A stretch of DNA of 64,000 nt from Candidatus Latescibacterota bacterium. Its GTDB lineage: Bacteria; Latescibacterota; UBA2968; UBA8231. The notes beneath the pieces are model-generated. The model was not told where the DNA came from. It was given only the letters and a program-made list of their open reading frames with translations, and did not search any database. The position numbers and the translations under genes were made by a program. This document shows positions 15,697-37,687 of the stretch, one piece after another. Position 1 is the stretch's first letter. Each line of letters opens with the position of its first letter. The stretch spans positions 288,001 through 352,000 of the forward strand of contig CBDFJF010000001.1 of the NCBI GenBank assembly GCA_965248265.1, read 5' to 3'.

Positions 15697-16995
15697 ATGG
15701 ACCTGACACAGCAACCACCCCGCCGGCCATCCAACAGAGCCATCGCCGGCATCGTCTGCCTTGCACGGATGACGGACAAAGCCAGAGGCCACGACGCTGA
15801 ACTCATGGGCGAGTACAAGTATGGCGATGACTCGGGAATGGATAGCGAAACCCTGTCTTTTTTCGGCATGGTGGCGGGGGAATTCGAGGAAGCGGCCGTC
15901 GATAACGACGATGCGCAGTTGACCGACCTCGTGACGGAGAGAATGGCAGGACGCGAAGCCGAGATCACTGCGTTCAACGAGGAGTGGCTGGCGCGGAAGC
16001 CGCAGGACGAGCTCCACCGCCGGCTTCTGGCCGAACGCCTGGCCAGGTACGCTCCTGAGCGCACCGATATAACGACCGTCATACAGTCCATTGAGCTCGA
16101 TGACTGGGGTGCCTTCCGCGACCTGGACCTCACGGCCGGACCTCCCCGTACGCCGTACCTGCGTTCGGTGGCTGGTGTCGCCGGCGCGGCGCGCATGGGG
16201 GACAAGGCCCGGGCGAAGGTTGCAGGGCTGATCGGGGAGTACAAGTACGGTTCCGACTCCGGCATCGATCGCATCATTCTGGAATTTCTCGGAGTTGGAG
16301 AGGATGAGTTCGCTCAAGCCGCGTACGCGAACCCGAATGACGACGAGCTCAGCGACTGGGTGAAGGTGCACGGCGATCTGTCCGCACCGCGGATTGCCGC
16401 GCACAATGCCCGTCTGAGCGCCCGCGGCCTCAACACCCCCGACGTAGGCGAGCGCTTTCTGCAACGCCGCGCCCAGATCGCTCCTGAACGCACGGATATC
16501 ACCGCATTCTTCGACCTCATCGACCTGGATGACGAACTGAGTTTCGGCATCGACCTCAACCGGCGCCCCCCGCGGAGCCCGTACGACGACAGTCTTGCCG
16601 GTTTGCTCGGGCTCGCCCGCATGATCGACAAAGCGAGGGCAGCCAATGCAGGTAGACTCGGGCTTTACTGGTATGGCCAGGATTCAGGCATCGATCGACG
16701 TTTGCTGGAACTGCTGGGCCTGTCGCAGGAGGAGTTCGCCGAAGCTCTGGAAAAACGCGACACCGACGACGCCGTGATCGAGTGGCTGGGAAATCGATTG
16801 GATAAAACCCCGGCCGAAAAGGAGGCGTTCAATGACATGCTCATCAACCTCCGTCCAAGTACGGACGGTCAGGAGGCTTTCCTCAGATCAATCGTGCGCA
16901 AATACGATGCTGATCGCACCGACATAGAGAGCTTTCTGGCCGCGGGTGTATTGGATGACGAAATCACCTTCGCGCGCCTCAAAGCGAAGGTGTGA
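15697..16995 (+). CDS. Protein of three tandem DUF5069-like domains
   Basis: DL-x3-PPR...ARMxDKAR...GxYxYG.DSG.D repeated at 15700, 16126 and 16552 (426-nt period). Confidence 0.8.
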   Translation: MDLTQQPPRRPSNRAIAGIVCLARMTDKARGHDAELMGEYKYGDDSGMDSETLSFFGMVAGEFEEAAVDNDDAQLTDLVTERMAGREAEITAFNEEWLARKPQDELHRRLLAERLARYAPERTDITTVIQSIELDDWGAFRDLDLTAGPPRTPYLRSVAGVAGAARMGDKARAKVAGLIGEYKYGSDSGIDRIILEFLGVGEDEFAQAAYANPNDDELSDWVKVHGDLSAPRIAAHNARLSARGLNTPDVGERFLQRRAQIAPERTDITAFFDLIDLDDELSFGIDLNRRPPRSPYDDSLAGLLGLARMIDKARAANAGRLGLYWYGQDSGIDRRLLELLGLSQEEFAEALEKRDTDDAVIEWLGNRLDKTPAEKEAFNDMLINLRPSTDGQEAFLRSIVRKYDADRTDIESFLAAGVLDDEITFARLKAKV

Positions 16996-18637: not shown

Positions 18638-19993
18638 ATGAACAACACTGCTCCGACCGCTCCTGCGCCATCCGCATGCCACGTGATGGCGAAACCTTCG
18701 GGCTCGGTCTGCAACATAGACTGCGAGTATTGCTTCTATCTGGAGAAAGAGAAGCTGTACCCGGAGGTTGGGCAGGACTGGCGCATGAGCGACGAGGTGC
18801 TGGAACGCTACGTCCGCCAGCAAATCGAGGCTCAGGATGTTCCGGTCGTCGACTTCGCATGGCAGGGAGGAGAACCGACCTTGATGGGGGTCGACTTCTT
18901 CCGCCGCGCAGTCGAACTGCAGCGGCAGTACGGTGACGGCAAGGAGGTCACGAATGCTTTCCAGACCAACGGCATACTCCTCGACGACGATTGGGGGCGA
19001 TTCCTCAAAGAAAACGAATTCCTTGTCGGTCTATCCATAGATGGCCCGAGGGCATTCCACGACCGCTACCGAGTTGACAAGGGGCAGAAGCCGACCTTCG
19101 ACCGCGTGGTTGCCGGCCTCGAGGTGCTCAAGCAACACGGGGTCCAGTTCAACACGTTAACGGTGCTCCAGCGCCACAACGCCGATCACCCAGAAACCGT
19201 GTATCGTTTTCTCAAGGAGATCGGCAGTCAGTTCATGCAGTTCATCCCGATTGTCGAACGCTCCACGGAAACCCCTGCGGCTGATGGTTTGGAGTTGATC
19301 GCCCCAGACTTCGACGGCGAGGCGACTGTGACCAGGTGGTCGGTCGGATCGGTGCAGTACGGCAAGTTTCTGTGCCGCGTCTTCGACGAATGGGTACGAG
19401 CCGATGTGGGAGAGCGTTACGTGCAGATATTCGATGTTTCCCTCGGCTCATGGCTGGGTCAGAGCGCCAGCCTCTGCATCTTTGCTGAGACCTGCGGCAA
19501 TGCCCTCGCCATCGAGCACAACGGTGATCTGTATTCGTGCGACCATTTCGTCTACCCGGAGTTCAAACTCGGCAATGTCGCAGATCACACGATACGACAG
19601 ATGGTTGCCAGCGAGCAGCAGCGCACCTTCGGTCAGGATAAGAAGGATACGTTGCCCGGATATTGCCGGGAGTGTGACTTTCGCTTCGCCTGCAATGGGG
19701 GATGTCCCAAGCATCGGTTCATCAAGACACCCAGCGGGGAGGATGGCCTGAACTACCTGTGCAAGGGGTACAAGCTCTACTTCGCCCACGTCGCCCCGTA
19801 CATGGAGTTTATGGCCCAGGAACTCAGGCAGCGCAGGCCCGCGGCCAACGTGATGGAATGGGTGAAGGAACGAGATTTCGCCAAGGCCAACCAGGCAACC
19901 AGGCCGCCGGGTCGAAACGACCCGTGTCCCTGCGGCAGCGGCAGGAAATTCAAACGCTGCTGCGGCGACAAGCAGCCCGCATCAGCAAGCTGA
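18638..19993 (+). CDS. Anaerobic sulfatase-maturating radical SAM/SPASM enzyme with a SEC-C tail
   Basis: CNIDCEYC, WQGGEPTL, YSCDHFV, CRECDFRFACNGGCPK, GRNDPCPCGSGRKFKRCC. Confidence 0.93.
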   Translation: MNNTAPTAPAPSACHVMAKPSGSVCNIDCEYCFYLEKEKLYPEVGQDWRMSDEVLERYVRQQIEAQDVPVVDFAWQGGEPTLMGVDFFRRAVELQRQYGDGKEVTNAFQTNGILLDDDWGRFLKENEFLVGLSIDGPRAFHDRYRVDKGQKPTFDRVVAGLEVLKQHGVQFNTLTVLQRHNADHPETVYRFLKEIGSQFMQFIPIVERSTETPAADGLELIAPDFDGEATVTRWSVGSVQYGKFLCRVFDEWVRADVGERYVQIFDVSLGSWLGQSASLCIFAETCGNALAIEHNGDLYSCDHFVYPEFKLGNVADHTIRQMVASEQQRTFGQDKKDTLPGYCRECDFRFACNGGCPKHRFIKTPSGEDGLNYLCKGYKLYFAHVAPYMEFMAQELRQRRPAANVMEWVKERDFAKANQATRPPGRNDPCPCGSGRKFKRCCGDKQPASAS

Positions 19994-20042: not shown

Positions 20043-20948
20043 ATGATCGAAGCGCAACTCCAAACGGATGATTTCAAAGTCTGCGTAACCGTCGATGGCA
20101 AGCCATTCACGGAGTACCGCTACGGGCACTTTGTCTGCCGACCCTACTTCTATCCTGTGCTGACGCCGGACGGTCAGCGCCTGACTCGCGGGTACCCGGC
20201 CGAGAAGGTCGAGGGCGAAACGGATGACCACTATCATCACCGTGGTATCTATGTGGCCCACGGTGATGTCAACGGCCACGAACTGTGGATGGAGAAGGAG
20301 GGCCACGGATGCATGCTGCAGCGCGGGGAACCGGGGGTCGGTGAGACGGATGGGGCCGTTTCCATCTCCGGCATCGTCGACTGGTTCGGGTGCGAGGGGG
20401 AGAAGCTGCTCGAGGAGGCACGTGACATCCGCATATGGGCGGAGGGCGATATGCGCGTCATCGATCACCGCAGCGAGATGCGGGCGCTCTACGGGGACGT
20501 CAATTTCGGGGATACGAAGGAGGGTGGGTTGATAGCCATTCGCGTCCCCACGTCCATGGATGCCCAAGAAAAGGGGCGGATCGAGAACTCAGAAGGTCTC
20601 GTCTACGACAGCGGACAGGGTGAGGAAGTGACCTGGGGTGTGCAGGCTGCCTGGGTCGACTATTCCGGTCCTCTCGCCAATGGCGACGAGTGGGGATACA
20701 CCGTAGTCGATCACCGTTCCAATCCACGCCATCCCACCTACTGGCACGTGCGCGGATACGGATTGTTCACGGCCAATCCCTTCGGGGTCCATCACTTCAA
20801 GAACGACAAGAGCATTGATGCGAGTTTGGATCTGCCGGGCGGGGAGACGGCCGTCTTCCGCTACCGGATCATCATCCATCCGGGGAGGGGGCCAGGCGCC
20901 GCCAGAATCGGCGAGTTGATCGAAGCTTTTCAGTTGTCGCCGAGGTAG
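20043..20948 (+). CDS. DUF6807 / PmoA-like family protein of unknown function
   Basis: RPYFYPV, DHYHHRG, FGDTKEGG, WHVRGYGLFTANPF; soluble, so not the membrane methane monooxygenase subunit. Confidence 0.7.
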   Translation: MIEAQLQTDDFKVCVTVDGKPFTEYRYGHFVCRPYFYPVLTPDGQRLTRGYPAEKVEGETDDHYHHRGIYVAHGDVNGHELWMEKEGHGCMLQRGEPGVGETDGAVSISGIVDWFGCEGEKLLEEARDIRIWAEGDMRVIDHRSEMRALYGDVNFGDTKEGGLIAIRVPTSMDAQEKGRIENSEGLVYDSGQGEEVTWGVQAAWVDYSGPLANGDEWGYTVVDHRSNPRHPTYWHVRGYGLFTANPFGVHHFKNDKSIDASLDLPGGETAVFRYRIIIHPGRGPGAARIGELIEAFQLSPR

Positions 20949-23900
20949 CTGCGGTAGAGGGCTTCCGCGTCGCGCAATGTCGGATTGGTATTCTCGACGG
21001 CGCCAGCGGCAGGCAGTGCCTTCGCCGCAACCGGCTGCGCAGGCGAGGTCACCGACAAGGTAAAGGAGGACTTGATCACCTCGTCGGCATGGATGGTGAG
21101 GCCAAGGATATCGAAGTCGCCCTCACTGTCGCGGGGCAACACGTAGCGACCGTGCCAGATGCCCGGGCCCTGATAGGCCAAGGCCACATCCCGCCATCCT
21201 GAATCCAGCACCCTCAGCAGAGGCTCACGACTCATCCCGCGTTCGCTGATGGCGAATACGTCCACGAAGGCCGGTTGAATCGGATTTGGAATCACTGCCA
21301 ATCGCAAGGTTGCGGGGGAGTCGACGCCGTAGGAGCCATCCACTGGATAGGCCTCCACAACGATTCGGGCCGTCGCCTCCACGCCGCTCCGGTTTCGAGC
21401 CGTCAGAGTGATCATTTCGCTCCCAGGCGGGAATTCATCCGTGGAGATCCTGAGCACATTCGCATCCGTGTCATGTATGAGGTCGACGGGGATCAGGGCG
21501 TCGGCCTCCCACACCAGATTGGCCGGATTGCTACCACCCTCTACCAGGGTCTCTATGTCGATTTCCAGCTGCCGATCTCCTGCAAAAATGGCGATTTCGA
21601 CCAGATCACGCAGGACCAGCTCGGCTGGGGGAGGGAGCACGGTGATGCCGATGAAGGCCTCGAGCACGACGTCGCCAAAGGGGTCGGTTCCCCGAAGGAT
21701 GATGATCTCATTGCCGTCCCAGCCCTCCTCGGCGAGAACGGTCAGGGCGAGCGATTCGGGGTCTATGATGGTCTGAGTGTGGACGCTGCCCGAAATCTCC
21801 CAGCTCCAATCAGCGGCATCGAATCCACTGACGAAGTCACCGATGAAGATGCTCTGATCGAATTCACCGGCGGCGATGGTCAGCGCGGGAATAGGGGCCA
21901 ATTCAGGGATTTCCAACTCTATTGGATCCTGACCCGGATCGACATTCGGGCCCCGGACGCGGATGACCAGCAATTCGCGGGCTTCGTTGCCATCCGGATC
22001 GGTGACCAGGAGCTCAATATCAACTCTTCCCGGTGACACGGACTCAGCGATGGCGATCGTCAACACGTGCGTCGTGGCGTCCACGCGCAGCTCGATCCCT
22101 TCCTCCGTTGCAGGAAGAAGCCACTCCATCTGACCGGGATCGTGATCCAGGTCAAAGACGTAGCTGTCCAGGTCCAGGGAGGCGTCGATGCCGCCGACGG
22201 GCAGCTCGATTACGGGAAGAGGGGCAACCGAGGGTTCACCTGTGGCCGAGGCCGCGAACACGGTGAGATCGAAGGACGCGGTTTCGCCCGTCGGGTCGCT
22301 GACCGTGAAGCGCAATGTTTCGGTGTCGGTGAAATCGGGAGGAGCTTCGATACGGGCGTCGCCGCTACTACTGAAACGGACGTCGAGGGCGCCCTGCCCG
22401 CTGACATGCCATGAAAGATCCTCGGTTTGATCGTCCGGGTCGACGACCAGGCCGCCCAATTCGAGAATGGAGTGCGTCCCGGGGAACAACCCCAACCGTT
22501 CTGGTGCGGTCAGGATACTGGGAGCAAGTGACGCAAGCACGGTAACCGTCAGCGGGACCGTGTCTGTCAGGCCCTGGCTATCCTCGACCAGCAAGGTGAT
22601 CGTCTCCGTCCCCATCCAATCCATCGGTGTGCTCACGACCAGGCGTGATCCACGCCGTTCGAGGCTCACCTGGTCCTCGCCAGTCCACGTCAGACTCAGG
22701 GTGCCGATGTCGTCCTCCATGTCCTGGATGAGTGCACTCATGGTCAGACTGGAGTCTTGTCTGCCTCTGACAATCTGGAGGTTCGGGGCAACCTGGAACG
22801 CAGGCGCGTCGTTAAGGGCAGCGACTGACACCGGGATCGATGTTGAATCGGCAAAGCCGAATTCGTCGGTTACGACCAGATGAACCTCTCCTTCGCCGCT
22901 CCAGTTCGGGTTCGGCTGAATTCGGACGACGAACGGTGGGCCGCTGACGCTGGCCGTCAAGTTTTCTGTCGCCGTAACTGTCCAGGTGAGTTTGGCAGCT
23001 GGCGAGTCGGGGTCATCGACCCAATCATCGACTGTCAACTCGAAGATGGTATCCTCGTCGATGTCGATAGAATCCAGCATCTGGCCCAGTGTCGGTGCGG
23101 CGTTCACGAACACATCCACCGTGGTGAGTGCGGACTGGCCATCAGGATTAGTAGCCATCAGTGTGACACGCTCCCACAACGACTCATCGCCCGGGGCCGA
23201 GAGCAGCCGCCGCCCCGTCTCCACATCATGTGTGAGCGACAGGGCACTGCTGGACGTGAAAGACCAGACGATCTCCTCGCTGCTGTAGAGGGGATCGAAC
23301 ACAGCCCCGTCGAGCCGAAGGCTGGTGCTGTCGAGTTGGCCGCGCGCCAGAACGATGGTGGAGGGCAGTCCCTCCAGGGTGATTCCCTGAACAGTGACGC
23401 TCAAAGGCGTGATGAAGCGGAAAGGGCGGTGGTTGCCGTCGGGGGTGAAAAAACGCGTTTCGCGAATGCCGGTCTCGTCGATCCTGACGACGGATTCGGC
23501 CGTCGGCGCCTTGGCGCGAAGTCGCAAATAGGCTGTCGCCCCGGCCCCCATGTCGGTGGCGCGGACGACGCTGAAGTCCAACTGGGTCCCGGCCTGGCTC
23601 GCCGCAGGGTCATCTGCATCCAACAGGTCGTTGCGGAAGATCTCTCCGTTGCGCATGAAGATACCGGGTGCGAAGGGTTGGAAGCCGCTCGAAATGGCAT
23701 CGCGGTCTTCCTCGACCAGTTCGAAGACAGTCTCGTCGAAGGTCAGGAATATCGCCGCTCCAGAGAGAGACTGGTTCTCTGAATCGACGAAGAGCTCGAA
23801 CTCGATCTCCTGGCCGACCATGGTATTGATTTCAGTAAGGCCGGACTGGACGTCGCGCAGTTCCAACTTGGCCGCCAGTAGGGGATCCTGGGCGATGCAC

Positions 23901-23995
23901 AGGAAAAGCATCATCGCGGCCCCGGTTAAGGCCCCCGGTCTGAGAAACCCGCTTCGTTCCATCGCTTGAATCGTTCCTTCGCTGTGATAGACCAC
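20930..23995 (-). CDS. Large secreted protein: N-terminal cohesin-like domain plus tandem cadherin-like/Ig repeats
   Basis: Signal peptide; VGQEIEFELFV...LSGAAIFLTFDETVFELV; repeats of type NxAP...DxD...LxW...W/FxGxE...VxDxxG. Start may be ATG at 23962. Confidence 0.8.
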   Translation of the reverse strand: MVYHSEGTIQAMERSGFLRPGALTGAAMMLFLCIAQDPLLAAKLELRDVQSGLTEINTMVGQEIEFELFVDSENQSLSGAAIFLTFDETVFELVEEDRDAISSGFQPFAPGIFMRNGEIFRNDLLDADDPAASQAGTQLDFSVVRATDMGAGATAYLRLRAKAPTAESVVRIDETGIRETRFFTPDGNHRPFRFITPLSVTVQGITLEGLPSTIVLARGQLDSTSLRLDGAVFDPLYSSEEIVWSFTSSSALSLTHDVETGRRLLSAPGDESLWERVTLMATNPDGQSALTTVDVFVNAAPTLGQMLDSIDIDEDTIFELTVDDWVDDPDSPAAKLTWTVTATENLTASVSGPPFVVRIQPNPNWSGEGEVHLVVTDEFGFADSTSIPVSVAALNDAPAFQVAPNLQIVRGRQDSSLTMSALIQDMEDDIGTLSLTWTGEDQVSLERRGSRLVVSTPMDWMGTETITLLVEDSQGLTDTVPLTVTVLASLAPSILTAPERLGLFPGTHSILELGGLVVDPDDQTEDLSWHVSGQGALDVRFSSSGDARIEAPPDFTDTETLRFTVSDPTGETASFDLTVFAASATGEPSVAPLPVIELPVGGIDASLDLDSYVFDLDHDPGQMEWLLPATEEGIELRVDATTHVLTIAIAESVSPGRVDIELLVTDPDGNEARELLVIRVRGPNVDPGQDPIELEIPELAPIPALTIAAGEFDQSIFIGDFVSGFDAADWSWEISGSVHTQTIIDPESLALTVLAEEGWDGNEIIILRGTDPFGDVVLEAFIGITVLPPPAELVLRDLVEIAIFAGDRQLEIDIETLVEGGSNPANLVWEADALIPVDLIHDTDANVLRISTDEFPPGSEMITLTARNRSGVEATARIVVEAYPVDGSYGVDSPATLRLAVIPNPIQPAFVDVFAISERGMSREPLLRVLDSGWRDVALAYQGPGIWHGRYVLPRDSEGDFDILGLTIHADEVIKSSFTLSVTSPAQPVAAKALPAAGAVENTNPTLRDAEALYRSYLGDN

Positions 23996-24047
23996 CTCAG
24001 AGTCGTGACTACTCCCTGGGTGGATACATGTTTCCGTGGTGGAATCG

Positions 24048-24062
24048 GCAAGAATCGTGCCA
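24048..24062 (-). promoter_or_regulatory. Sigma-54 (-24/-12) promoter motif facing the 1021-aa cohesin gene
   Basis: Minus strand reads TGGCACGATTCTTGC, a full match to TGGCACG-N4-TTGC. Confidence 0.8.
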
Positions 24063-24202
24063 CCTAACCCAGTGAGGATTCCATGCCTTACTGGTCCTTC
24101 AGATCAGCAGGAAATGCCACCTCGAGGAACAATTTTCCCGGCAACGGAGTGCCCTCACCCAAGGATTCGGGGGTGTCAGGAAGGATAGGGAGGGGCGGAT
24201 CA

Positions 24203-24217
24203 TGGCATTGATCTTGC
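24203..24217 (+). promoter_or_regulatory. Sigma-54 (-24/-12) promoter motif facing the giant-protein operon
   Basis: TGGCATTGATCTTGC: GG-N10-GC spacing with TGGCA and TTGC. Confidence 0.72.
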
Positions 24218-24324
24218 TCAAACTACCTACGAATACCGTCAGAGCTCCCACCGCACGATGCGGGGGGTCCTGAGCCATCCTCTCCTCAACTGTGGTGGTC
24301 CGGGACAAACCGAAGGAATGGAAA

Positions 24325-27300
24325 GTGAAACACCAGAGCCAACACAGCGTCCTGTCCCCAGGGCGTAGCAGCAGTTCCGGCCGGCCGACTCGTGGGTGGA
24401 GTCCGTATTCATCCCGCTGCGATACGCAACGGCGTCCTCTATTGACTGCCATTGCCCGGTCGATAGGCGTTCTTATCGTGGCCTGTGTTGCCACCGTGAA
24501 CGCGGCTGTTCCCACCTTCGAAAACCAGACTCCGACCGGATTTTCGGCTCAAGACAGTACCGACAAGCAAGACTTCGTCGAAGGGCAGGACATAACAGTC
24601 CGCGTCGATCTGAACCAGGCAGCGACACCGACCTACCCGGTCATCGGCAATTTTCACAATCTGGAAACCGCAGAAATACTAGAGTCCCGCGACGTTGATG
24701 GTTTACGGGCGGACGTTGTTGTATCGGACGGTGGAATAGTTCACACGGCCTGGATCACTCAGGAAGTGGTGTCGCCGGTGACAACTCCTGTCTACAACGT
24801 CCGTTACGCCCGCAGCAACGACGGTGGCGACAGCTTTTCGACTCCCGTCAGCGTGTCTGGTAGCTTGCGTTTTGACCTATTGACGATCGACGGCGCCGGA
24901 CCCTCGTTTTCGACTGTTGACATCGAAGTGGACAGTCGCGGCAATCCGCGCGTCGTCTACGCCTTCAATCACTCGCCCGACGGTCACACGGTTGGCTTCG
25001 CGAGCAATCCGGACAATGTCTACTTCAATCACTCCGAGAACGGTGGAGCCACGTGGCTGCCGAACAACTCGGCCGTTCGTGTCAACGACATTGACGTAGT
25101 GGGCGAAGGCGTGTTGTCGGCCTTTCCGCGCATGGCGATCGATCAGCGCGACAACATCTATATCACCTACGTCCGCGGAACGACGATAACCGCTGCAGGA
25201 GGCGACGACGTCATGCTGACGAAGGTGGACCGGTCGACGAGTCCGTTCACGATGGAGCAGATCGGCTCCACTGGAACTGTTGGCAGCAGCGGCGGTGTGC
25301 GCATCACCGGTGACGCAGAACGGCACACGGGACCTGACATCGACGTCGGCACCGGCGATGTACTGCACGTCATCTTCTTTCGAGAGGATGCCGTCAGCGC
25401 CAACTCCACTATTGAGCACAAGACTCTGCTCGGTGATTTCTGGAATGTCGTCGATGCCAGCGGCTGGAATCAGGGTGTGGACGGAGCCCAGCTGGATGTA
25501 TTCGATCCGGAGCCGGCGACAAACGCTTCGCTGGAACAAAGGGCCACGTTCTACTTCCCGAGCATAGCCGTCGACCAGGTGAGTACGCCTGATCGGATCT
25601 ACGCGTTCTACAAGTCAGGCACTGCGGGACTGGAGACGGTCGTTTTCAACAACTACGTCTACGACAATGCTATTGGCGGCAGTGCCGGATGGCTGCAGGC
25701 GCAAGCATCGACCGTATGGAGCACGGCCAGTTCGGTCGTTTTCGCGGATGGTGATCTGGCCTACAACATCGAGCTGGATTGGACCGTGACCGAGCGGGTT
25801 GAGGCGGTCATCGACGACCGCCGCCCGGACCGCGGCGACGTCCACATCGTCTTCACCGCCGGCTACAGCAATAACGCGGGTGGCGCCAGTGAGCACGACA
25901 TCTATTACGGCTTTTACAATGGTGTGACCTGGACCTTGCCGGAGAAAGTCGCCGACGACGACTCCGACAGCGCCACCGAAGATGGCATTCGAGCCACCGA
26001 CACCTACCTCGTCGCTCCGACCATCGCCAAGGATTCCGACAGTGAGAACATCTACATGGTGTTCGGAGGAGGGACCGCGGAGGGGCTGGGCGTCAGCGGT
26101 GTCACGGACGCCAATCACCATGCCTACTTCAAGGTGTTAGGCCGCGCGGTGACGTCCGAAGATGTGTCTGTACCCGTCGGTGGGTTTCAGTACGACCTGG
26201 ACTATACCCCTATCAACCCCCACGACGCCACCGCAGACATCGATAACCAGCCGGTGTGGGTCCATGTAGCCGACAACGTTGACGGAGACGGACTCGGAGC
26301 CACGGGCAAGCAGGGGGATGGCTTCCTCGCCGGTGACTGGGAAACTGTGGCCGCTTTCACATTGGCAGATGACGACAAATTCTTTGAAGGCAAGGTCAAC
26401 GAAGACGCGTCGAACACCCACGAGTGGGGGGACGACAATGACAAGATCGGCTTGCTGGTCAAGCTCAACGTGCTCGGGAAGGATTCGGCCACTAACCTGC
26501 AGGTAGTCACCAACAGCACAGCGAGTGACGCCGGCAGCGGCAAAGGGGCCCGGACAATCAGTGTCTCAAATGCGAATCCGACACTGAACGTGGACACCTT
26601 CATCTCACCCCTCGATTTCTTCCTCCTGGGAGCAGACATCGACATCGTCGATTCGAACACCTCTCCCACGGTGGCGGTTTTTCAACCAGACGGTGTAGGG
26701 GATATTGCCAACGACTCCTACTCAATCAAGTACACCCTGAAGGATCCCGACGACGACCTATCCACCGGTGGCTTGCTCGCCGCGCTCTATTTCTCGGAGC
26801 ACAGCGACCTGGCCTCGGTCCAGGACATCCGGATTTTCGGTACGCTGATCGTAGACGAGAACGACAACAGCACGGTTTTCGCCAGCGGCACCGACGATTT
26901 CAGCGAAGCAGCCAACGAGAGCTACCTGTGGGACGACCCCTCAGCCGCGCTCAAGGGCAAGCTGTTTGCCAGCATTCATCAGGTGCCCAGTGGCACCTAC
27001 TTCATTTACCTGGTCGCCGATGACCAGAAGAATTCCGCCGTTTTCGCGCGCAGTCCGGGCTCGGTTACCGTCCTGCACAAGCCCATCGTTCAGTATGTCG
27101 ATCCAGCCGGTATCGATACCGTGGACACGGGCGTGCGCAGCGGCCGTCTGGCCAATCCCTACGACTTCGATTTCTTCGTCCAGGATTTCGATCTCCAGGG
27201 CGCCGCCGAAGTGCAGTTGTTCTTTTCAGCCGTGAGCGGCTTGAGCTCGATATCGATCAGCGGGTTTTATCCGAACCAGAATTTCGTGTTGGGCAAGAGC

Positions 27301-30207: not shown

Positions 30208-30219
30208 GGCGGGGTACTC

Positions 30220-33200
30220 ATGTTCAGATTCTCATCCTACATTGCGGCGATCCTGTTCGCCGGACTCGGTGCTGCAGAGGCGACACCACCGATCTTCGAG
30301 AACAGGACGCCGGTCGGGTTCTCGGTCGAGGACAGCACGACGACGGAGGATTTTATCGTCAGCAGCGAAGTCACCGTTCGTGTGGATTTGAACCAGGCTG
30401 CGAGTGAGGAGTATCCGGTAGTCGGCCACTTTCATCCACTCGAACAGAGTCTTCAGATCGGTACAACGGATACCGATGGTATGCAGGTTGACATCGCCAT
30501 GGTGAACGTGGCGCCCTTCGGAGTCAACGCCAATCAACCGGATGCCGGCGACACGACTCTGCAGATCACTCCAGTCATCCACACGGCCTGGATCGAGGAG
30601 TCCATCTACGACACCGGTCCCATCTACACGGTCGGAGCCACGCCCGCGTACGAAGTCATGTACGCGCGAAGTTACGATGGCGGCGACACCTTCACGACGC
30701 CGATAAGCGTGTCCAGCGGAGTCAGCTATTACCTGCTGACCGTGACCGGTACCTCGTTTTCGACGCTCGATCTCGAAGTGGAGAGCGGTGGCAATCCGCA
30801 CGTGACCTTCGCTTTTGTGTCGACGGCCGACCGCGTGCGCAAGAGGAATGTCTACTACACGCGCTCAGCCGACGGCGGGACGACATGGGATACACCGGTG
30901 ACCGTGAATGACCACAATACCGTCGGCAATCTCGAAGGACGCAGGGCGGCGTTTCCGCGGATGGCCATCGATGACCGCGACAACATCTTCATTAGCTACG
31001 TCCGCGGAGCCAGTCGGGGTACCGGCACGGGCGACGTCATGCTGGCGAAGGTCAACCGAGATAATTTCGGGATTGTCGGCATCGGCGAGGCCGGCGTTGC
31101 AGGCACCGGTGGTGTGCGCCTGACCGACGATGCCAAGAGGCACACGGGCCCGGACCTGGCGGTCGGTGACGGCGACGCGCTGCACGTGATCTATTTCAAC
31201 GATGATGATGATGTGGTCGAACACAAGCGTTCGAGTACGGACACGACCTGGATCGACCTGAGCTCCACGGGATGGGACCAGAATGTCGATGGGGCGGTCG
31301 TGGGGGCGTTCGTCGATGAACTCGTGAACACAGCGGTGGAACAGGAAGCGGATTTCTACTTTCCATCGGTCACCGTGGACAGGCTGATGTTGCCTGACCG
31401 GGTCTACGCGCTATACAAATTCGGCGATACCGGCGAGGAGACGATCAATTTCAACCAGTATGATGACGATGGTGGCACGGTTGCCTGGGGCACGGCCTCT
31501 GCCGTCTGGAGCACGGGCGGTACGCTGTTCCTTGATGGCGACACGGACTACAACATCGAACTCGACTGGACCATCACCGAACGGGTATCGGCCGTCGTCG
31601 ACGACAGGCTGGAGGACCGTGGGGACCTGCACATCGCTTTCACTGCCGGGTACAGCAATACCGCCGGAGGACCGAGCGAACACGATGTGTTTTACGCGCG
31701 GTACAATGGCGCCAGCTGGACGTTGCCAGAAAAAGTCGCCGACGACGACTCCGACGGCGTTGGCAACACCTCGGATGGCATCGCCGCGGCCGACGCCTTC
31801 CTCTTGAGTCCGGCCATCGCACAGCACCCGGATTTCGACAGCATATTCCTGGCCTTCGCCGGAGGTACGGACGAAGGGTTCGGAGTGAAAGGTGTCACGG
31901 ACGTCAACCAGCATCCGTATTTCAAGATCCTGGGACGGGTAATCTCCTCTGAGGATGACTCGGTTCCCATAGGGGGCTACGAGTACAATCTTTCCTACAC
32001 GCCGACGAATCCGCAGACGGTAGCTTCGGAGGTGGCGGACAATCCGATCTACGTCCACGTGGCAGATCCAGACGATGGTAGTGGCCTCGGCGCCGACGAC
32101 AACAATGACGATGGCTTTCTGACCGGCAGTTGGGAGAGCGTGGGTTCGACGCTGGCCGACGACGACAAGTTCTTCGAGGGGTTGATCAACGAGGATTCGA
32201 ATTCGACCAACGAATGGGGAGATGATGACGACAAGATCGGTTTGTTGCTCAAGTTGAACGTGCTGGGCGTCGATTCCACGACGAATCTGCAGGTTGTAAC
32301 CAATAGCACCGCAAGTGCCGCTGGCACTGGATTCGGCGCACGCTCCGTACGCGTCGGATCGACACCGGTCGTCGGTTTTACCAGCGGAGCCTACTTTGCT
32401 CTGGGAGCGAACATTGACATCGTGCCGTCGAACGCAGCACCCACAGTGGCTGTGCTGGAGCCGGATGGCACCGGTGACACCGCAGACACGTCCTTCCTCA
32501 TCGAATACGACCTGAACGATGCCGACGACGATCTCGACGCGGGTATGACTGCCGCGCTTTATGCCTACCCTTCTGATAACCTGGGGACGGTGAGGGATAT
32601 CCGGATTTTCGCGACACTCATCGCGGATGAGAATGATGTCTCGGCGAACAATGTCAACGGCACCGACGATCTGGAAGAAGGCAACAACCGGGACTATACC
32701 TGGGATGACCCCTCTGACGCTCTGAAAAGCAACCTGTTCGCGTCCATCTTCCGCGTGCCGAGTGGCTCTTACTTCATCTATCTGGTCGCCGACGACGGCA
32801 ACAACCCGCCGGTATTCGCCGTCAGCTCAGGCCCCCTCAGTATCGTACACAGCCCGATCGTTCAGCAGGTCGACCCGATTGTTGCTGACACCGTGGATTC
32901 CGGAGTGCGTACCGGCCTCAAGGCGAATCCATACGACCTCGACTTCAGCGTCGTCGACCACGACAGCGATGCCCGCGTGCAGCTGTTCTACGCCTCGGTC
33001 AGCGGCATCACTTCCGTTTCCGTGACCGGTTCCTACCCGAATCAGCGTTTTGTCCTGGGAAAAAGCGTGGCGGGCACTCGCGGCATCGCCATCACGGATT
33101 CGACGATTTTGACGGACCTAGACAGGGAGTTTTCGTGGGATATCACCGATTCCGTCTTCGTAGCGGGAGACTCAGCCATCGTCGACGACGGGACCTACTT

Positions 33201-35913
33201 CCTCTATGCGGTGGCGACAGATTCGATAAACGTCAGCGTCGGCAACAGTGCCACGTCCCTGGTAGTCAAGCACTCGCCCTCGTTCGAATTCTTCGAGCCT
33301 GCTGAAGACACCCAACGCAGCATCGACTCGGGCTCCCAATCCGCTTACACGATCCAATGGCAAAAGGGACCCGGGGACGATGATTACGATGACAATGCCT
33401 CGATCGATCTGTACTTCACGACGGATGATCCGGCCGTCGTCGATCATTCGACTGAGGCAGGCGCAACGACGGACGCTCTGATCAACGATGCCGACACCAA
33501 AACGATCGTCACCGGCCTTACCGAAGATGGGGATGGATCCTCTGACATGTACGTGTGGAATCTGCAAACGCCACCCAATAACATCCCCGTGAGCGGCGCG
33601 CAGGTGTGGGTTTACGCTGTCGCGATCGGTGCCACGGATACGACCGTGGCCCGGGGCGGTTCAGTCACCATCACGCACACGCCATACATGCGGTTGAATA
33701 CCCGGATGCCGGAGATCAACCAGGGTGATGTCATCAGGCTCGAATGGGAGGCCTACATGGTGGACGACGGATCCAGCACGGACGATGCCTACATCCGACT
33801 GTACGCGTCAACGAGCAGTGGCTTGACCACGGCGCAGGACCTCGAGGCCAACCTGGTAGGAGAGGGTGGGGCTGATAACACGTATATCATCAACAGTAGT
33901 GACGGCACTGCCACCGGGACGATCACGTCGATCCGTGAGACGGACGGAGATGCCTTCTCCTGGGATACCAACACCAGCACATTCACCCTGGATGAGGGAA
34001 ACTACGCCATCTACGCTGCCATCAGTGGGGATGCCACGTTCGTCGACAACACCCGGGGCAGAGTCAGTGAGTCTTCCAACCTGCTATCTGTGAAGACCAG
34101 TCAGGGCACTACGCCCAACATGGTTGTCAGCCCTAACGAGCTTATCGCCAGTGTCGGTGATACATTGACATTCGAGGTGCTCGTACAGACCGACGGCATC
34201 CCCGCCACTATGGTGTCGGCGATCATGGATTTTCCAACGAATCTCGATACGGTCAGCTTCAGTCCATTCACCGATCTGGGTGAGGTGTTCTCCGGAGGCT
34301 CCGTGATCGAGGACACGACCATTGGCAATCAACTTCGCTATACGAGAACGGGTACCGCAGAGATCATCGGAACCACGGAAGATCCAGCGCGCCTGGCCAG
34401 TTTCCAACTGGTCGTCACCAGCCCCTTCAACGGGAAAACCAGCATTTCGTTCGACGATACAGAGGCGGCCCTCAGCATCGTCGGCCGCTCGGCTCCTCTG
34501 ACTGAGACCACGGGGATGTCTGCCTTTGACGCTGAGATTCAATCGGCTCCGCGGGGGCGCATTCTGGCCACGGTCCTGCTCGAGGGACGCGCGCCCCCAG
34601 TGGGTAGTGGCAATCACAAGACTCGACTGGACGTGCACCTTCGTGTGCCCGGTAGTACGATAGACATCGGCGATGCGATATTCACCGCAGCCAACGACGA
34701 CGTGCCGGGTACGGCTGACACCGTAGAAGTTGAGACCTCGTCGGCCGGAGGACTGGCCCTCTTGAGCGTGCCGCAGGGTCGTTACGTCCTCACCTTCAAG
34801 GATTCGAGCCATCTGAGTGGTCGCACGGATACGCTGACGATTCGCAACGGTGAGACGATCGTGTTGAGCTCCGCAGAAGGGTTGTTCGCATCCGACATTC
34901 GGGGCGATGCTTCGTTCCTGCTCAGTCAGGACGGCAAACTGCTCAAGGCCGGTGATGCAACCGGGGACAACGAGATCGACGAGGACGACGTCAACGCCAT
35001 TGACGCGGCATGGGGTACCGATAACACGAAATCGGGTTTCGCGCGTGCCGACCTCAACAACGACGAGCGTGTCGGAGTCGAGGATCTCACAGTGACGACG
35101 TCCAACATCAGCAATAGCACTGGTTTTGGAGCGCCGCCTGTATTCAAGCGCATGGGGCCGGGCCCCCAGTCTGTCGACGCACCTGCCTTGGCACTGTCCG
35201 CTCCCGGTTTCAAAGGCCAGTGGCGCAGCGGATCCCAGATCGAGTTGCTGTTTACGGCGACCGGGCTGCGCGATCTAGCCGGGTACAGCCTGGAATTGGA
35301 TTATGATCCACTCGAGATGGATCTGGTGCGACCGCCCACTACCAGCAGCACCGGACGGCACATCTTCGCGTCCAATCCGAATGGCTATTTCGAGCATCTC
35401 AGTATCGAGCCGGGACGCGTGGCGGTGGCAGCAGCACGCCTGGGGACTGACTGGACTGCCGATGGCGACGGGGAAGTCATGCGCCTGCGCATCAGGTTGA
35501 ATCGGGATGGTTTCCCCGAGTCGCTGCGCGTTCGCGAAGGAAAACTGTTGAGCGCAGCCTACGAGGCCACCGAGTTGAACCTCGCCGGCGATCCCTTCCT
35601 GCTGGCACTGCCCAGGGAGTTGGCGGTGCGGCAGAATTACCCCAATCCGTTCAATCCGACGACGACGATTCCGTTCGAAGTCCCGGCGGCTCAATCTTCG
35701 GCGACGGTGGCTGTGCCCGTATCAGTCGAGATTTTCAATACACTCGGACAGCTGGTTCGTACCCTGGTGCGGGAGGACCTGCACCCGGGATACCACCGTG
35801 CGTCCTGGGACGGCCGCAACGGCTCCGGACACGGCGTCGCCACCGGGATGTATCTGTACCGCGTGCGGGCTGGAGAGCTGAGCAAGTCGGGCAGGATGAC
35901 GCTGATCAAGTAG
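30220..35913 (+). CDS. Giant secreted multidomain protein B, full-length paralog of A
   Basis: Signal peptide and the same domain order; shared blocks YNIELDWT, WTLPEKVADDDSD, EWGDD.DKIGLL.KLNVLG, GFGAPPV; ends QNYPNPFNPTTTI...GRMTLIK. Confidence 0.9.
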   Translation: MFRFSSYIAAILFAGLGAAEATPPIFENRTPVGFSVEDSTTTEDFIVSSEVTVRVDLNQAASEEYPVVGHFHPLEQSLQIGTTDTDGMQVDIAMVNVAPFGVNANQPDAGDTTLQITPVIHTAWIEESIYDTGPIYTVGATPAYEVMYARSYDGGDTFTTPISVSSGVSYYLLTVTGTSFSTLDLEVESGGNPHVTFAFVSTADRVRKRNVYYTRSADGGTTWDTPVTVNDHNTVGNLEGRRAAFPRMAIDDRDNIFISYVRGASRGTGTGDVMLAKVNRDNFGIVGIGEAGVAGTGGVRLTDDAKRHTGPDLAVGDGDALHVIYFNDDDDVVEHKRSSTDTTWIDLSSTGWDQNVDGAVVGAFVDELVNTAVEQEADFYFPSVTVDRLMLPDRVYALYKFGDTGEETINFNQYDDDGGTVAWGTASAVWSTGGTLFLDGDTDYNIELDWTITERVSAVVDDRLEDRGDLHIAFTAGYSNTAGGPSEHDVFYARYNGASWTLPEKVADDDSDGVGNTSDGIAAADAFLLSPAIAQHPDFDSIFLAFAGGTDEGFGVKGVTDVNQHPYFKILGRVISSEDDSVPIGGYEYNLSYTPTNPQTVASEVADNPIYVHVADPDDGSGLGADDNNDDGFLTGSWESVGSTLADDDKFFEGLINEDSNSTNEWGDDDDKIGLLLKLNVLGVDSTTNLQVVTNSTASAAGTGFGARSVRVGSTPVVGFTSGAYFALGANIDIVPSNAAPTVAVLEPDGTGDTADTSFLIEYDLNDADDDLDAGMTAALYAYPSDNLGTVRDIRIFATLIADENDVSANNVNGTDDLEEGNNRDYTWDDPSDALKSNLFASIFRVPSGSYFIYLVADDGNNPPVFAVSSGPLSIVHSPIVQQVDPIVADTVDSGVRTGLKANPYDLDFSVVDHDSDARVQLFYASVSGITSVSVTGSYPNQRFVLGKSVAGTRGIAITDSTILTDLDREFSWDITDSVFVAGDSAIVDDGTYFLYAVATDSINVSVGNSATSLVVKHSPSFEFFEPAEDTQRSIDSGSQSAYTIQWQKGPGDDDYDDNASIDLYFTTDDPAVVDHSTEAGATTDALINDADTKTIVTGLTEDGDGSSDMYVWNLQTPPNNIPVSGAQVWVYAVAIGATDTTVARGGSVTITHTPYMRLNTRMPEINQGDVIRLEWEAYMVDDGSSTDDAYIRLYASTSSGLTTAQDLEANLVGEGGADNTYIINSSDGTATGTITSIRETDGDAFSWDTNTSTFTLDEGNYAIYAAISGDATFVDNTRGRVSESSNLLSVKTSQGTTPNMVVSPNELIASVGDTLTFEVLVQTDGIPATMVSAIMDFPTNLDTVSFSPFTDLGEVFSGGSVIEDTTIGNQLRYTRTGTAEIIGTTEDPARLASFQLVVTSPFNGKTSISFDDTEAALSIVGRSAPLTETTGMSAFDAEIQSAPRGRILATVLLEGRAPPVGSGNHKTRLDVHLRVPGSTIDIGDAIFTAANDDVPGTADTVEVETSSAGGLALLSVPQGRYVLTFKDSSHLSGRTDTLTIRNGETIVLSSAEGLFASDIRGDASFLLSQDGKLLKAGDATGDNEIDEDDVNAIDAAWGTDNTKSGFARADLNNDERVGVEDLTVTTSNISNSTGFGAPPVFKRMGPGPQSVDAPALALSAPGFKGQWRSGSQIELLFTATGLRDLAGYSLELDYDPLEMDLVRPPTTSSTGRHIFASNPNGYFEHLSIEPGRVAVAAARLGTDWTADGDGEVMRLRIRLNRDGFPESLRVREGKLLSAAYEATELNLAGDPFLLALPRELAVRQNYPNPFNPTTTIPFEVPAAQSSATVAVPVSVEIFNTLGQLVRTLVREDLHPGYHRASWDGRNGSGHGVATGMYLYRVRAGELSKSGRMTLIK

Positions 35914-35971
35914 TCATCACGATGCGGCGCGGCGACGCATTGGAGAGCATGACGCCGATCCTCCATATTTC

Positions 35972-36883
35972 ATGACCGGCGTTGGGGCAGACATTGGTAG
36001 GGCCGCCAACCCGAAAATTCGGAACGGACGAATGATGGATACCCCACCACTCGCGCTCGTCGTCACCGCGCGCCACCTGCGATCGTTGATCATCGTCGCA
36101 ACTGGTCTTGCGATGATGGCGCCGGCGGAGAGTCGGGCCGAGTTCGATCCCCCGCGGATCACGGATGTCATCCGTCTTGTCGATCGGGGTGCTCTCAACA
36201 CCTCCAGCCTGCGAAAGCTCTACAACATCGACAAAGGCCAGGAGACCAACATTACCAACGGCGACACGCTCAATGTCTACCGCGAGAAACGCATCTCCTC
36301 GCTTGTCCAGCAGCAAGTACGCATCTTCGTGGGAACGCTGACGATCACCGACGCTCATGAGGGATCTGCCCTGGGTGTTTTCGAGCCCAACGAGATAGCG
36401 GGCAGGAACCACGCGGTTCGGCACAAGTCGGCAATGAAGGGTGATTTCGTGATACCCCGGCTGGTGCTCGACTCCAACGTGCTGTTCCAGGCGGCGAGGG
36501 CAGAACTGCTGGGAATCGCCCGGCAGGAGTTCTTGAAAGTGGCCGACTTCATCAAGTTTCATTCCCCCTCCAAGCTCATCATCGAGGGGCACACCGACGC
36601 CGATGGCGATGATGCTTACAACAAGGACCTGTCGCAGCGACGGGCAGAGTCCGTGCGCAGGCTACTGGTCGATGAAAATGATTTCATAACCGAGGACATG
36701 ATCGAAGCCAAAGGCTACGGTGAGGAGCGGCCGCGGGTGAAGAACGATACCGCAATCAACAAGGCGCTCAATCGCCGCATTGAGGTACTCGTGTGGTGGG
36801 AGAGCCTGGAAGAGCGCGTCGACGCAACCGAGTTGGAACTGGATGAAGAGGCGCTGCTCGAAGCTGGAGTTGAAGAAGAATAG
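35972..36883 (+). CDS. Secreted OmpA-C (peptidoglycan-binding) domain protein 1
   Basis: IEGHTDADG, LSQRRAESV, GYGEERP, NRRIEV; N-terminal beta-rich domain. True start is probably downstream, at the MMDTPP methionines. Confidence 0.88.
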   Translation: MTGVGADIGRAANPKIRNGRMMDTPPLALVVTARHLRSLIIVATGLAMMAPAESRAEFDPPRITDVIRLVDRGALNTSSLRKLYNIDKGQETNITNGDTLNVYREKRISSLVQQQVRIFVGTLTITDAHEGSALGVFEPNEIAGRNHAVRHKSAMKGDFVIPRLVLDSNVLFQAARAELLGIARQEFLKVADFIKFHSPSKLIIEGHTDADGDDAYNKDLSQRRAESVRRLLVDENDFITEDMIEAKGYGEERPRVKNDTAINKALNRRIEVLVWWESLEERVDATELELDEEALLEAGVEEE

Positions 36884-37687
36884 GTGCATGATGCAGGCAA
36901 CAACAGGATGAGAGCTATGACCAACTACTCCAGAGCCGAACACCCGGTGGGACGGGCCAGCGGCCTGCTTTTCGCACTGGTGGTGCTGTCCGTTGTGGTT
37001 TTTACCGGGGACAGCAATGCACAGTTCAAACCACCCCGTATCATTTATGTGATCAATGCCGCCGATCTCGGTATCGCGATACCGGAAGGCGCCGATGACC
37101 GGCAGTACTACATCGATCGCGGTCAGGAATCGAACATAAACAACGGTGATACCCTCAACGTCTATCGCGAGAAACGGTTGTCGCGGCAGATTGCCAGACC
37201 GCTGAAGGTTTTTGTGGGTACGCTCGTGGTAACGGACGCGCAACAGGGATCGGCGCTTGGCAACTTCATAGCCAACGCCTCGATCATGGACAATCCCCTC
37301 ATCCGTTACAAGGTCGGCATGAAGGGGGACCTGGTGGTGCCGCGTATCGTCATCGATTCGAGTGTGCTGTTCAGCGCCGGCAGTGCCGGCCTCGAGTCCG
37401 GGGCAACGGCAGAGTTTGACAAGGTAGCGGATTTCGTCCAGCTCTACTCGCCTTCCAAGCTGTTCATCGACGGCCACACCGACTCGGACGGGGATGCGCG
37501 AGCGAACAAAGAGCTTTCCGAGGATCGGGCCGACGCCGTCAGGCGGGTCCTCGTAGAGGGGTACGACCACATCACGGACGCCATGGTCGAGGCCCGCGGC
37601 TACGGTGAGGAGCGACCGATGGTCAAGAACGACACTAAAGCGAACAAGGCCCTCAACCGGCGTATCGAAGTCCTGGTGTGGCAATAG
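36884..37687 (+). CDS. Secreted OmpA-C domain protein 2, paralog of the upstream gene
   Basis: IDGHTDSDG, LSEDRADAV, GYGEERP, NRRIEV; shares NGDTLNVYREKR with paralog 1. Confidence 0.88.
   Translation: MHDAGNNRMRAMTNYSRAEHPVGRASGLLFALVVLSVVVFTGDSNAQFKPPRIIYVINAADLGIAIPEGADDRQYYIDRGQESNINNGDTLNVYREKRLSRQIARPLKVFVGTLVVTDAQQGSALGNFIANASIMDNPLIRYKVGMKGDLVVPRIVIDSSVLFSAGSAGLESGATAEFDKVADFVQLYSPSKLFIDGHTDSDGDARANKELSEDRADAVRRVLVEGYDHITDAMVEARGYGEERPMVKNDTKANKALNRRIEVLVWQ

Follow-up and report, generated by a model that had tools for sequence, protein, structure and literature searches.

Cohesin–dockerin pairs assemble cellulosomes, in which a primary scaffoldin carries multiple cohesins and a carbohydrate-binding module (CBM), and the dockerins are borne on glycoside hydrolases (GHs). 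The cohesin fold is a nine-stranded jelly-roll beta-sandwich, and a dockerin consists of two duplicated segments, in each of which a helix comes after an EF-hand-like Ca2+ loop of 12 residues. To our knowledge, cohesin–dockerin assembly has been characterized experimentally almost only in Gram-positive cellulosomes. Scattered non-cellulosomal cohesin and dockerin modules were reportedly catalogued by Peer et al. in 2009, a survey said to predate architectures linked to a type IX secretion system (T9SS) and to hold no gene triad like the one treated here. Here we describe such a triad in a 64,000-nucleotide stretch (the window) of a Candidatus Latescibacterota bacterium (assembly GCA_965248265.1, contig CBDFJF010000001.1, positions 288,001 to 352,000). 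It comprises a gene for a scaffold-like protein with one predicted cohesin and immunoglobulin (Ig)-like repeats and, divergent from it, two genes for paralogous giant proteins (giants A and B). Our preferred reading, held with slightly better than even confidence, is that these three genes are a module of one Latescibacterota family, whose T9SS-cargo giants and cohesin/Ig-repeat protein form a Ca2+-linked surface assembly. It is supported by computed results of three kinds: the identities of the domains, a T9SS machinery encoded in this genome, and the joint conservation of the scaffold and giant genes.

Within the Fibrobacteres–Chlorobi–Bacteroidetes (FCB) group, the relevant passages of PMC8542988 describe cohesin and dockerin proteins with a T9SS C-terminal domain, inferred from metagenome-assembled genomes (MAGs) of Cloacimonadota ('Ca. 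Stygibacter'), with dockerins on GH18, GH57 and peptidases and a 3755-aa scaffoldin of tandem cohesins and CBMs. As far as those passages go, both cases involve uncultured FCB-group bacteria, secreted cohesin/dockerin proteins and a proposed T9SS-type surface anchor, all deduced from MAGs. The Cloacimonadota proteins differ from those of the present locus, where the dockerin carriers hold two cohesins and no enzyme domain at threshold, the partner has a single cohesin plus Ig-like repeats, and the three genes form a conserved syntenic unit. Since T9SS-tailed cohesin–dockerin proteins have thus been inferred for FCB-group phyla, this kind of system had already been proposed in silico, and an earlier sequence-only reading of the window overstated the case in calling it undescribed. 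A passage of PMC7081726, citing Farag 2017, credits Latescibacteria with cellulosome-affiliated enzymes; our literature search joining Latescibacteria, cohesin and dockerin returned no paper. In the literature searched, judged largely from abstracts, we found no experimental test of a T9SS-linked cohesin–dockerin pair.

Each giant would consist, in order, of a signal peptide, a seven-bladed Asp-box propeller, an Asp-rich stalk of ~700 aa, a cohesin, an X-like sandwich, a dockerin, a second cohesin and a T9SS tail (Table 1). The sequence-only reading had proposed five secreted-protein genes, among them two ~1900-aa Asp-rich paralogues with cohesin-like domains on both sides of a dockerin-like domain. 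Its account of gene order and paralogy was borne out: five open reading frames (ORFs) lie in this arrangement, all five proteins carry hydrophobic signal-like N-terminal segments (read from the sequence, with no signal-peptide predictor), and the giants are 48% identical over their full length, with Asp contents of 10.5% (A) and 10.2% (B). The domains on both sides of the dockerin of giant A also fold as cohesins in a predicted model. Giant A, giant B and 11 orthologues were aligned, and this AlphaFold model covers residues 1340–1971 of giant A. The model's mean predicted local distance difference test score (pLDDT) was 59, with values of 60–88 in both putative cohesins and the sorting domain. 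In VIA structural alignments, cohesin 1 matched 4uyq_A (Z 13.6, rmsd 2.7, 135 residues) and the type III cohesin 2zf9_B (Z 12.5), while cohesin 2 matched 4u3s_A (Z 14.3, rmsd 2.2, 133 residues) and 1ohz_A (Z 14.3). Cohesin 2 also aligned with the cohesin of Archaeoglobus fulgidus (PDB 2xdh, Z 13.2), one of the non-cellulosomal modules, which resemble the present ones in standing on proteins other than cellulases. All of the best 50 alignments of the model were to cohesins, and as modelled both flanking domains of giant A are cohesins. At the sequence level, the profile of cohesin 2 orthologues matched type II cohesins among PDB sequences (3l8q_A 5.5e-7, 1tyj_A 4.6e-5, 2y3n_A 5.2e-5), the cohesin 1 profile matched nothing relevant there, and the two profiles gave no profile–profile match to each other. 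Giant B was matched by the hidden Markov models (HMMs) A2, A3 (dockerin) and A4 at 3e-49, 8e-39 and 6.4e-48, and we infer its two cohesins by this homology.

A profile match and intact Ca2+ loops support the domain between the cohesins of giant A as a dockerin. Loop 1 reads D-x-S-x-D-x-E-I-N-x-x-D and loop 2 D-x-N-x-D-x-x-V-G-x-x-D. In 13 of 13 sequences there was no variation at positions 1, 5 and 12 in the first loop or at 1, 3, 5 and 12 in the second, and position 3 in the first was kept in at least 90% of them. A wider dockerin profile (A7; 21 sequences), extended by the dockerins that a third giant carries in this genome and in ten relatives and by one other dockerin of this genome, matched the PDB dockerins 2b59_B (1.2e-11), 2y3n_B (2.6e-11) and 3kcp_A (3.5e-11), and the best of these matches are to the type II X-dockerin of CipA. 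In the closest solved analogue, the CohI9-X-DocII segment of Clostridium (Acetivibrio) thermocellum CipA with its type II cohesin anchoring proteins such as SdbA (3kcp, 2b59), a cohesin, an X-like sandwich and a dockerin follow each other in the same order as in the giants, and 3kcp_A was also the top Foldseek match of the giant A tail model. The CipA system further resembles the giants in the type II cohesins that match their cohesin 2, and in having a cohesin that adjoins a cell-envelope anchoring module. Unlike CipA, the giants belong to a Gram-negative host of the FCB group, would be anchored by a T9SS sorting domain rather than surface-layer homology (SLH) repeats, and bear plug and sockets on one protein with a propeller head. 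Their X-like domain is CarboxypepD_reg-like at a sub-threshold score (PF13620, 25.8 bits against a cut-off of 32.3). The locus also differs from CipA in lacking a multi-cohesin primary scaffoldin, a CBM and a recognised GH: Pfam and NCBI family scans of the five locus proteins returned no CBM or GH family at E<=0.01, in agreement with the non-cellulosomal nature that the sequence-only reading had assigned to these modules. Classification as a cellulosome was rejected, given that the scaffold has one cohesin-type domain and the dockerins sit on cohesin-bearing proteins.

The 'PNPFN tail' of the giants is, by its family matches, a T9SS type A sorting domain (cut-offs of 23 bits for TIGR04183 and 27 bits for FlgD_ig, PF13860; scores in Table 1). 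The genome (7.32 Mb in 2 contigs, 92% complete) encodes SprA (296.9 and 276.6 bits, cut-off 200) and three PorU-type sortases (626–655 bits, cut-off 420); the component search covered SprA and PorU-type sortases. It also holds 88 sorting-domain places, so that the giants count as two among many cargo proteins of the T9SS. Given the giants' own sorting domains, together with SprA, PorU and the 88 tails, the envelope tether is most likely the T9SS rather than OmpA. When contigs were searched with the alignment of the tail, the pattern of the sorting domain prevailed, and most matches were tails, spread over many phyla of the FCB group; residues 17–632 were matched by one Latescibacterota MAG, at 28% identity. 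Two relatives of genus g9 (G008 and G021) encode a homologue of PorU-like sortases a few kb downstream of giant B and on the giants' strand (L037 356-4144(-) and L039 392-4171(-)), 47–48% identical to a PorU-like ORF of the window's genome (C1:1899086-1903069).

The scaffold protein has a signal-like N-terminus followed by a cohesin, seven Ig-like repeats and a C-terminal beta-rich domain. It had been described as a cohesin plus cadherin-like repeats, of which the cohesin-type domain and the repeats stand, while the cadherin family matched only below its threshold (20.1 against 26.5 bits). The repeats instead scored 61.3 bits with PF17963 (cut-off 23.6), with NF012211 under its cut-off, and an iterated repeat HMM found seven copies. 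The N-terminal domain is a predicted cohesin: in hhalign comparisons its profile (A6) aligned with the cohesin 2 profile (73% probability, E 3e-5) and with that of cohesin 1 (39%, E 3e-4), and the QPF insert was aligned in the latter, as expected from the earlier remark that the scaffold cohesin and the first cohesin of giant A share an unusual insert. Its match to the Pfam cohesin family had an E value of 0.22. The scaffold-type cohesin forms a small family, with 310 representative clusters out of 1.84 billion at E<=1e-3; the domain is found N-terminally in proteins of 1000–1450 aa or as free proteins of ~200–220 aa, the free form being common among the 150 best database representatives. The genome itself has two ORFs of 266 and 223 aa with little beyond this domain (C1:1168064-1168861 and C2:3343339-3344007). 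Such free cohesin proteins may act as soluble sockets or caps.

No T9SS sorting domain was found in the scaffold of this genome with Pfam or TIGR04183. Seven of 11 syntenic orthologues are ~300 aa longer and end in a canonical T9SS tail; the present scaffold and four other syntenic copies end before this extension. In the protein database, FlgD_ig is present in 38 of 75 scaffold family clusters and absent from 37, and the nearest relatives of the scaffold (89%, 80% and 70% identity) are all of the short form, so this form is real. The C-terminal domain (scaffold residues ~860–1021, window 20930-21418; IPNPIQP ... GIWHGRYVL ...) has the appearance of a sorting-domain-like beta-sandwich, without a Pfam match at E<=10; it is internal in the seven longer orthologues and near the protein end here and in the four others.

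Forty relatives were searched, 24 from the same family and 16 from other families. Orthologues of giants A and B, full-length or fragmentary and with 57–65% identity, were found in 16 of the 24 family genomes and were adjacent in 13 of these 16; the other eight family genomes and all 16 genomes from other families match the giant tail only. A scaffold orthologue (43–51% identity) is present in the same 16 family genomes and in none of the other eight. It lies beside giant A, in divergent orientation, in all 11 upstream flanks fetched, where the whole protein is 42–47% identical to its orthologues, and three further cases by coordinates bring this adjacency to 14 of 16 genomes; in the last two the genes are split by contig ends. 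The window's genome has a third giant paralogue (C2:3672359-3678766; 34% full-length identity) with a gene for a scaffold-type cohesin protein after it, and this pairing recurs in eight of eight flanks from relatives. The conserved unit is one or more giants with a single-cohesin Ig-repeat protein, and it occurs as two paralogous loci. Scaffold-like proteins with T9SS tails are paired with giant T9SS cargo at C2:3667654-3678766, C2:3201778-3215055 and C2:1663601-1671656 of the genome.

The modules differ in how well they are kept. Mean pairwise identity over 10 genomes was 76% for the dockerin, 69% for the X-like domain, 64% for the propeller, 62% for the sorting domain, 60% for the scaffold cohesin, 55% for cohesin 1 and 44% for cohesin 2, the least conserved. 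Between giants A and B, the dockerins are 63% identical and the cohesin 2 domains 24.5%. In families f2–f4, proteins of ~280 aa match cohesin 2 and the sorting domain only, with 34–43% identity (e.g. G027:C2:2713345-2713968 and G036:C1:19821-20465), and large proteins matching the giants from the dockerin onward likewise occur in other families of the class. By these partial matches, the dockerin–cohesin–tail cassette is modular and widespread in the class.

In the preferred reading of a Ca2+-linked surface assembly, the giants would pass through the inner membrane via Sec and through the outer one via the T9SS, a PorU-type sortase would process their C-terminal domain, and they would remain surface-bound. 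One molecule's X-dockerin would then plug, with Ca2+, into a cohesin of another, the candidate partners being the membrane-proximal cohesin 2 of a giant, after the manner of type II X-Doc/Coh anchoring, or the well-conserved scaffold cohesin. Linked in this way, the proteins would make up a surface assembly of several subunits, with the propellers held off the cell as heads that bind or cleave glycans. Given that the dockerins are conserved and cohesin 2 has diverged, a common partner that is itself conserved, for instance the cohesin of the scaffold, is favoured, by a conservation argument only; docking of giant to giant by the membrane anchor can be argued from the type II character of both the dockerin and cohesin 2. 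Several observations weigh against this reading. The dockerins score below the Pfam cut-off (Dockerin_1 PF00404, 21.5 bits in giant A and 19.1 in giant B, against 22.9), and residues 172–391 of the tail model, which hold the X-like domain and the dockerin, have pLDDT<50, so the dockerin is identified from its sequence. None of the five locus cohesins reaches 24.1 bits with Pfam PF00963: the best score is 20.1 bits for cohesin 2 of giant B, the scaffold has 12.2 bits and the other three are unmatched. The scaffold cohesin is recognised by profile–profile matches of 39–73% probability, and its profile retrieved only cohesins of R. flavefaciens ScaB from the PDB, without significance (E 0.13). 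Against the five cohesins of the locus stand two dockerins, and about five dockerin proteins were found in the whole genome; since cohesins outnumber these few dockerins, most sockets have no known plug. The scaffold lacks the T9SS tail seen in seven of 11 syntenic orthologues and in 38 of 75 family clusters. The co-occurrence counts overstate the support they give, because the genomes compared are kin rather than independent.

A possible, though on balance unlikely, alternative is enzyme display, in which the propeller would be catalytic (BNR_4 with GH145/PL42, or a divergent sialidase type) and the modules would concentrate enzymes for polysaccharide degradation. A model of giant A residues 60–640 had modest confidence (predicted template modelling score 0.71, mean pLDDT 57.7), and by it the N-terminal domain is a seven-bladed propeller, weakly BNR_4-like, for which glycan cleavage and mere binding are both possible. 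BNR_4 (PF15892, cut-off 27.3 bits) was matched in seven of 13 orthologous propellers, with a best E of 6.8e-5, and is precomputed on three of 30 database homologues; the best PDB match of the propeller profile is the GH145-type chain 5mvh_A (E 0.091). VIA aligned the model with GH145/BNR_4 and PL42 chains at Z 20.7–22 over 335–360 residues, and the described BNR_4 propellers (GH145 BT3686, 5muk/5mul; PL42 FoRham1, 7esl) share its seven blades and Asp-box repeats. NCBI names orthologue fragments 'sialidase family protein' or 'exo-alpha-sialidase', and the Latescibacterial enzymes of PMC7081726 would also fit such a role. Against enzyme display, all of these family matches are sub-threshold, the propeller of giant A itself has no Pfam match at E<=1, and the database names are automatic labels. 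The PLL4 lectin (Z 26.8) and YncE (Z 26.3), seven-bladed and non-catalytic, outscore the GH145 chains at Z ~21–22, so the propeller fold alone is no proof of catalysis; the giants differ further from BNR_4 enzymes in their fused 1300-aa non-catalytic tail, and the Pfam and NCBI scans detected no other carbohydrate-active enzyme (CAZyme) domain in the five proteins. A canonical GH33 sialidase, in which a propeller of six blades bears a FRIP motif and several Asp-boxes, is ruled out: the motif ([FYWL]R[IVL]P) is absent from both giants, each has two Asp-boxes, the best structural matches are seven-bladed, and BNR_2 (PF13088) was found in three of 13 orthologous propellers only (best E 0.0057), below threshold. 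The propeller is in that respect not the conventional hydrolase that would have spoken against the sequence-only reading. The related claim that the locus has no GH catalytic domain holds only for families at threshold, because of the weak likeness to BNR_4.

The remaining alternatives concern how, or whether, the proteins are joined. We give only a slim chance to the absence of intermolecular assembly, with the dockerin clasping its own cohesin in cis, so as to stabilise or mask the tail, or cohesin 2 being merely part of a generic T9SS cargo tail. The dockerin and cohesin 2 of giant A are about 30 residues apart, cohesin 2 is the least conserved module, and many unrelated proteins of the class, the ~280-aa proteins of family f2 among them, share cohesin plus sorting domain (residues ~1760–1971) or dockerin–cohesin–tail (from ~1650), which suggests a generic cassette. 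A cis arrangement would hardly explain why separate scaffold-type cohesin genes are kept beside each giant paralogue, and a strict cis pair would be expected to co-diverge, in contrast to the conserved dockerins and diverged cohesin 2 domains of giants A and B. The scaffoldins known to us that have both module types do not self-bind. Also improbable, if a little less so, is an extended form of the assembly, in which the giants, each with one plug and two sockets, would self-assemble with Ca2+ into a branched lattice or fibre and export the scaffold piggy-back. Such a structure would amount to an enzyme-poor 'Gram-negative cellulosome', an adhesive or glycan-capturing coat on the Latescibacterota outer membrane; in roughly half of the family, the present genome included, the scaffold would no longer have a T9SS tail of its own and would reach the surface only on the giants' dockerin, through the T9SS. 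Least probable, and in our view very unlikely, is a five-gene system with two OmpA-C paralogues as dedicated peptidoglycan anchors of a cohesin–dockerin lattice. OmpA-C binds peptidoglycan, and the two OmpA-C paralogues reported behind the giants are indeed there (PF00691 at 67.6 and 67.4 bits against a cut-off of 27.2; 53% identity). They lie after giant B and share its strand, the first behind a gap of 58 nt and the second behind none, so co-transcription with giant B is possible, and a third OmpA paralogue lies ~3 kb from the scaffold-like gene at C2:1663601-1671656. The pair was nevertheless found in none of nine downstream flanks of relatives, six of which continue with HD_3/HflX/Lon genes, as the window does after the OmpA genes; in G008 and G021 the PorU-like gene takes their place. 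OmpA-type genes occur in all five relatives searched at other loci (1–6 copies per relative); among nine such loci, one had a giant-like C-terminus ~7 kb off, one a T9SS-tailed ORF and none a scaffold. The OmpA proteins contain no cohesin or dockerin in Pfam scans, and the giants carry their own T9SS anchor signal. Both the proposed anchoring role and the five-gene synteny thus failed in the relatives: with the OmpA pair absent from all nine flanks, the unit that is conserved consists of three genes rather than five. The OmpA-C genes, which encode ordinary peptidoglycan-binding envelope proteins, were inserted locally, in tandem, between giant B and HD_3.

The compact unit of a scaffold and giants, kept across genera of a Gram-negative candidate phylum, joins cohesin–dockerin modules to type IX secretion. 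Three features are new here: each propeller-headed giant bears both plug and sockets, the three genes form a conserved unit in which the single-cohesin partner often has no export tail of its own, and the cohesins lie under the Pfam cut-off. If the modules bind as we infer, the locus would offer a small defined test case for multi-protein surface structures of diderms made from T9SS cargo, and new orthogonal plug–socket pairs for protein engineering. In public records this architecture is hidden behind automatic names such as 'sialidase family protein' and 'hypothetical protein'.

Table 1. Genes and predicted domains of the locus, with positions in the window.
Feature	Position	Strand	Details
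Scaffold gene	20930-23995	-	ORF of 1021 aa; likely start ATG at codon 12, position 23962
Scaffold Ig-like repeats	21356-23350	-	Seven tandem ~95-aa Big_9 / tandem-95 repeats; residues 216-880
Scaffold N-terminal cohesin-type domain (predicted)	23396-23869	-	Residues ~43-200; conserved QPF insert
Divergent intergenic region between likely starts of scaffold and giant A	23963-24441		From in-frame start codons and positions of signal-like segments
Giant A	24292-30207	+	ORF of 1971 aa; likely start TTG at codon 51, position 24442
Giant A seven-bladed beta-propeller	24679-26187	+	Residues ~130-632; two Asp-boxes; predicted model
Giant A Asp-rich middle region	26188-28338	+	~710 aa; no family match; presumed beta-sandwich stalk
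Giant A cohesin 1	28354-28821	+	Residues ~1355-1510, model residues 16-171; structural alignment of the model
Giant A X-like beta-sandwich	28822-29178	+	CarboxypepD_reg-like; just before dockerin; PF13620 25.8 bits
Giant A dockerin	29221-29397	+	Residues ~1644-1702; two EF-hand-like Ca2+ loops; PF00404 21.5 bits
Giant A cohesin 2	29494-29919	+	Residues ~1735-1876, model residues 396-537; structural alignment of the model and profile
Giant A T9SS type A sorting domain ('PNPFN tail')	29950-30204	+	TIGR04183 29.6 bits; PF13860 39.8 bits
Giant B	30220-35913	+	ORF of 1897 aa; paralogue of giant A, identical domain order
Giant B cohesin 1	34102-34548	+	By homology to giant A
Giant B dockerin	34948-35124	+	Dockerin_1 19.1 bits; homology to giant A
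Giant B cohesin 2	35173-35634	+	By homology to giant A
Giant B T9SS tail	35638-35910	+	TIGR04183 26.2 bits; FlgD_ig 41.5 bits
OmpA-C protein 1	35972-36883	+	303 aa; PF00691 67.6 bits; neighbour in own lineage only, outside conserved unit
OmpA-C protein 2	36884-37687	+	267 aa; tandem paralogue of OmpA-C protein 1; outside conserved unit

The likely starts of the divergent scaffold and giant A genes are separated by about 480 bp. A scan for consensus promoters and terminators found fewer sites than in shuffled sequences and none above chance, and neither Rfam, at gathering thresholds, nor ARAGORN gave a match in the window. The stretch is contained in four DNA sequencing runs of one study, with no RNA run among the runs listed. 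The Asp-rich stalk of giant A had no Pfam match at E<=10 and no lead in the ESM Atlas (score 0.79), and contains two detectable internal repeats.

Both OmpA proteins share a conserved N-terminal domain of ~110 aa (window 35972-36470 and 36884-37350) without a Pfam match at E<=10. The nearest Atlas clusters of this OmpA family are mostly from Latescibacterota, and a weak Atlas lead (0.86) points to clusters with FlgT_C in 21% of their members. The locus is flanked by housekeeping genes (HisRS, Lon, HflX, GlnD and PurA). Upstream of it, the window encodes a protein with three DUF5069 repeats (15697-16995(+)) and a radical SAM/SPASM protein with a C-terminal SEC-C motif (18638-19993(+)); among 11 flanks from relatives, synteny with the scaffold extends to the radical SAM gene in three and to the DUF6807 gene in four. 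Elsewhere in the window lie a 642-aa T9SS-tailed protein with DUF2330 and a C-terminal FlgD_ig (44863-46791(-)), also matched in the sorting-domain scan (C1:332875-333117), and a 397-aa BNR/Ycf48-type propeller protein (54166-55359(+); PSII_BNR, Sortilin-Vps10), followed by an 862-aa protein with no Pfam family (55403-57991(+)).

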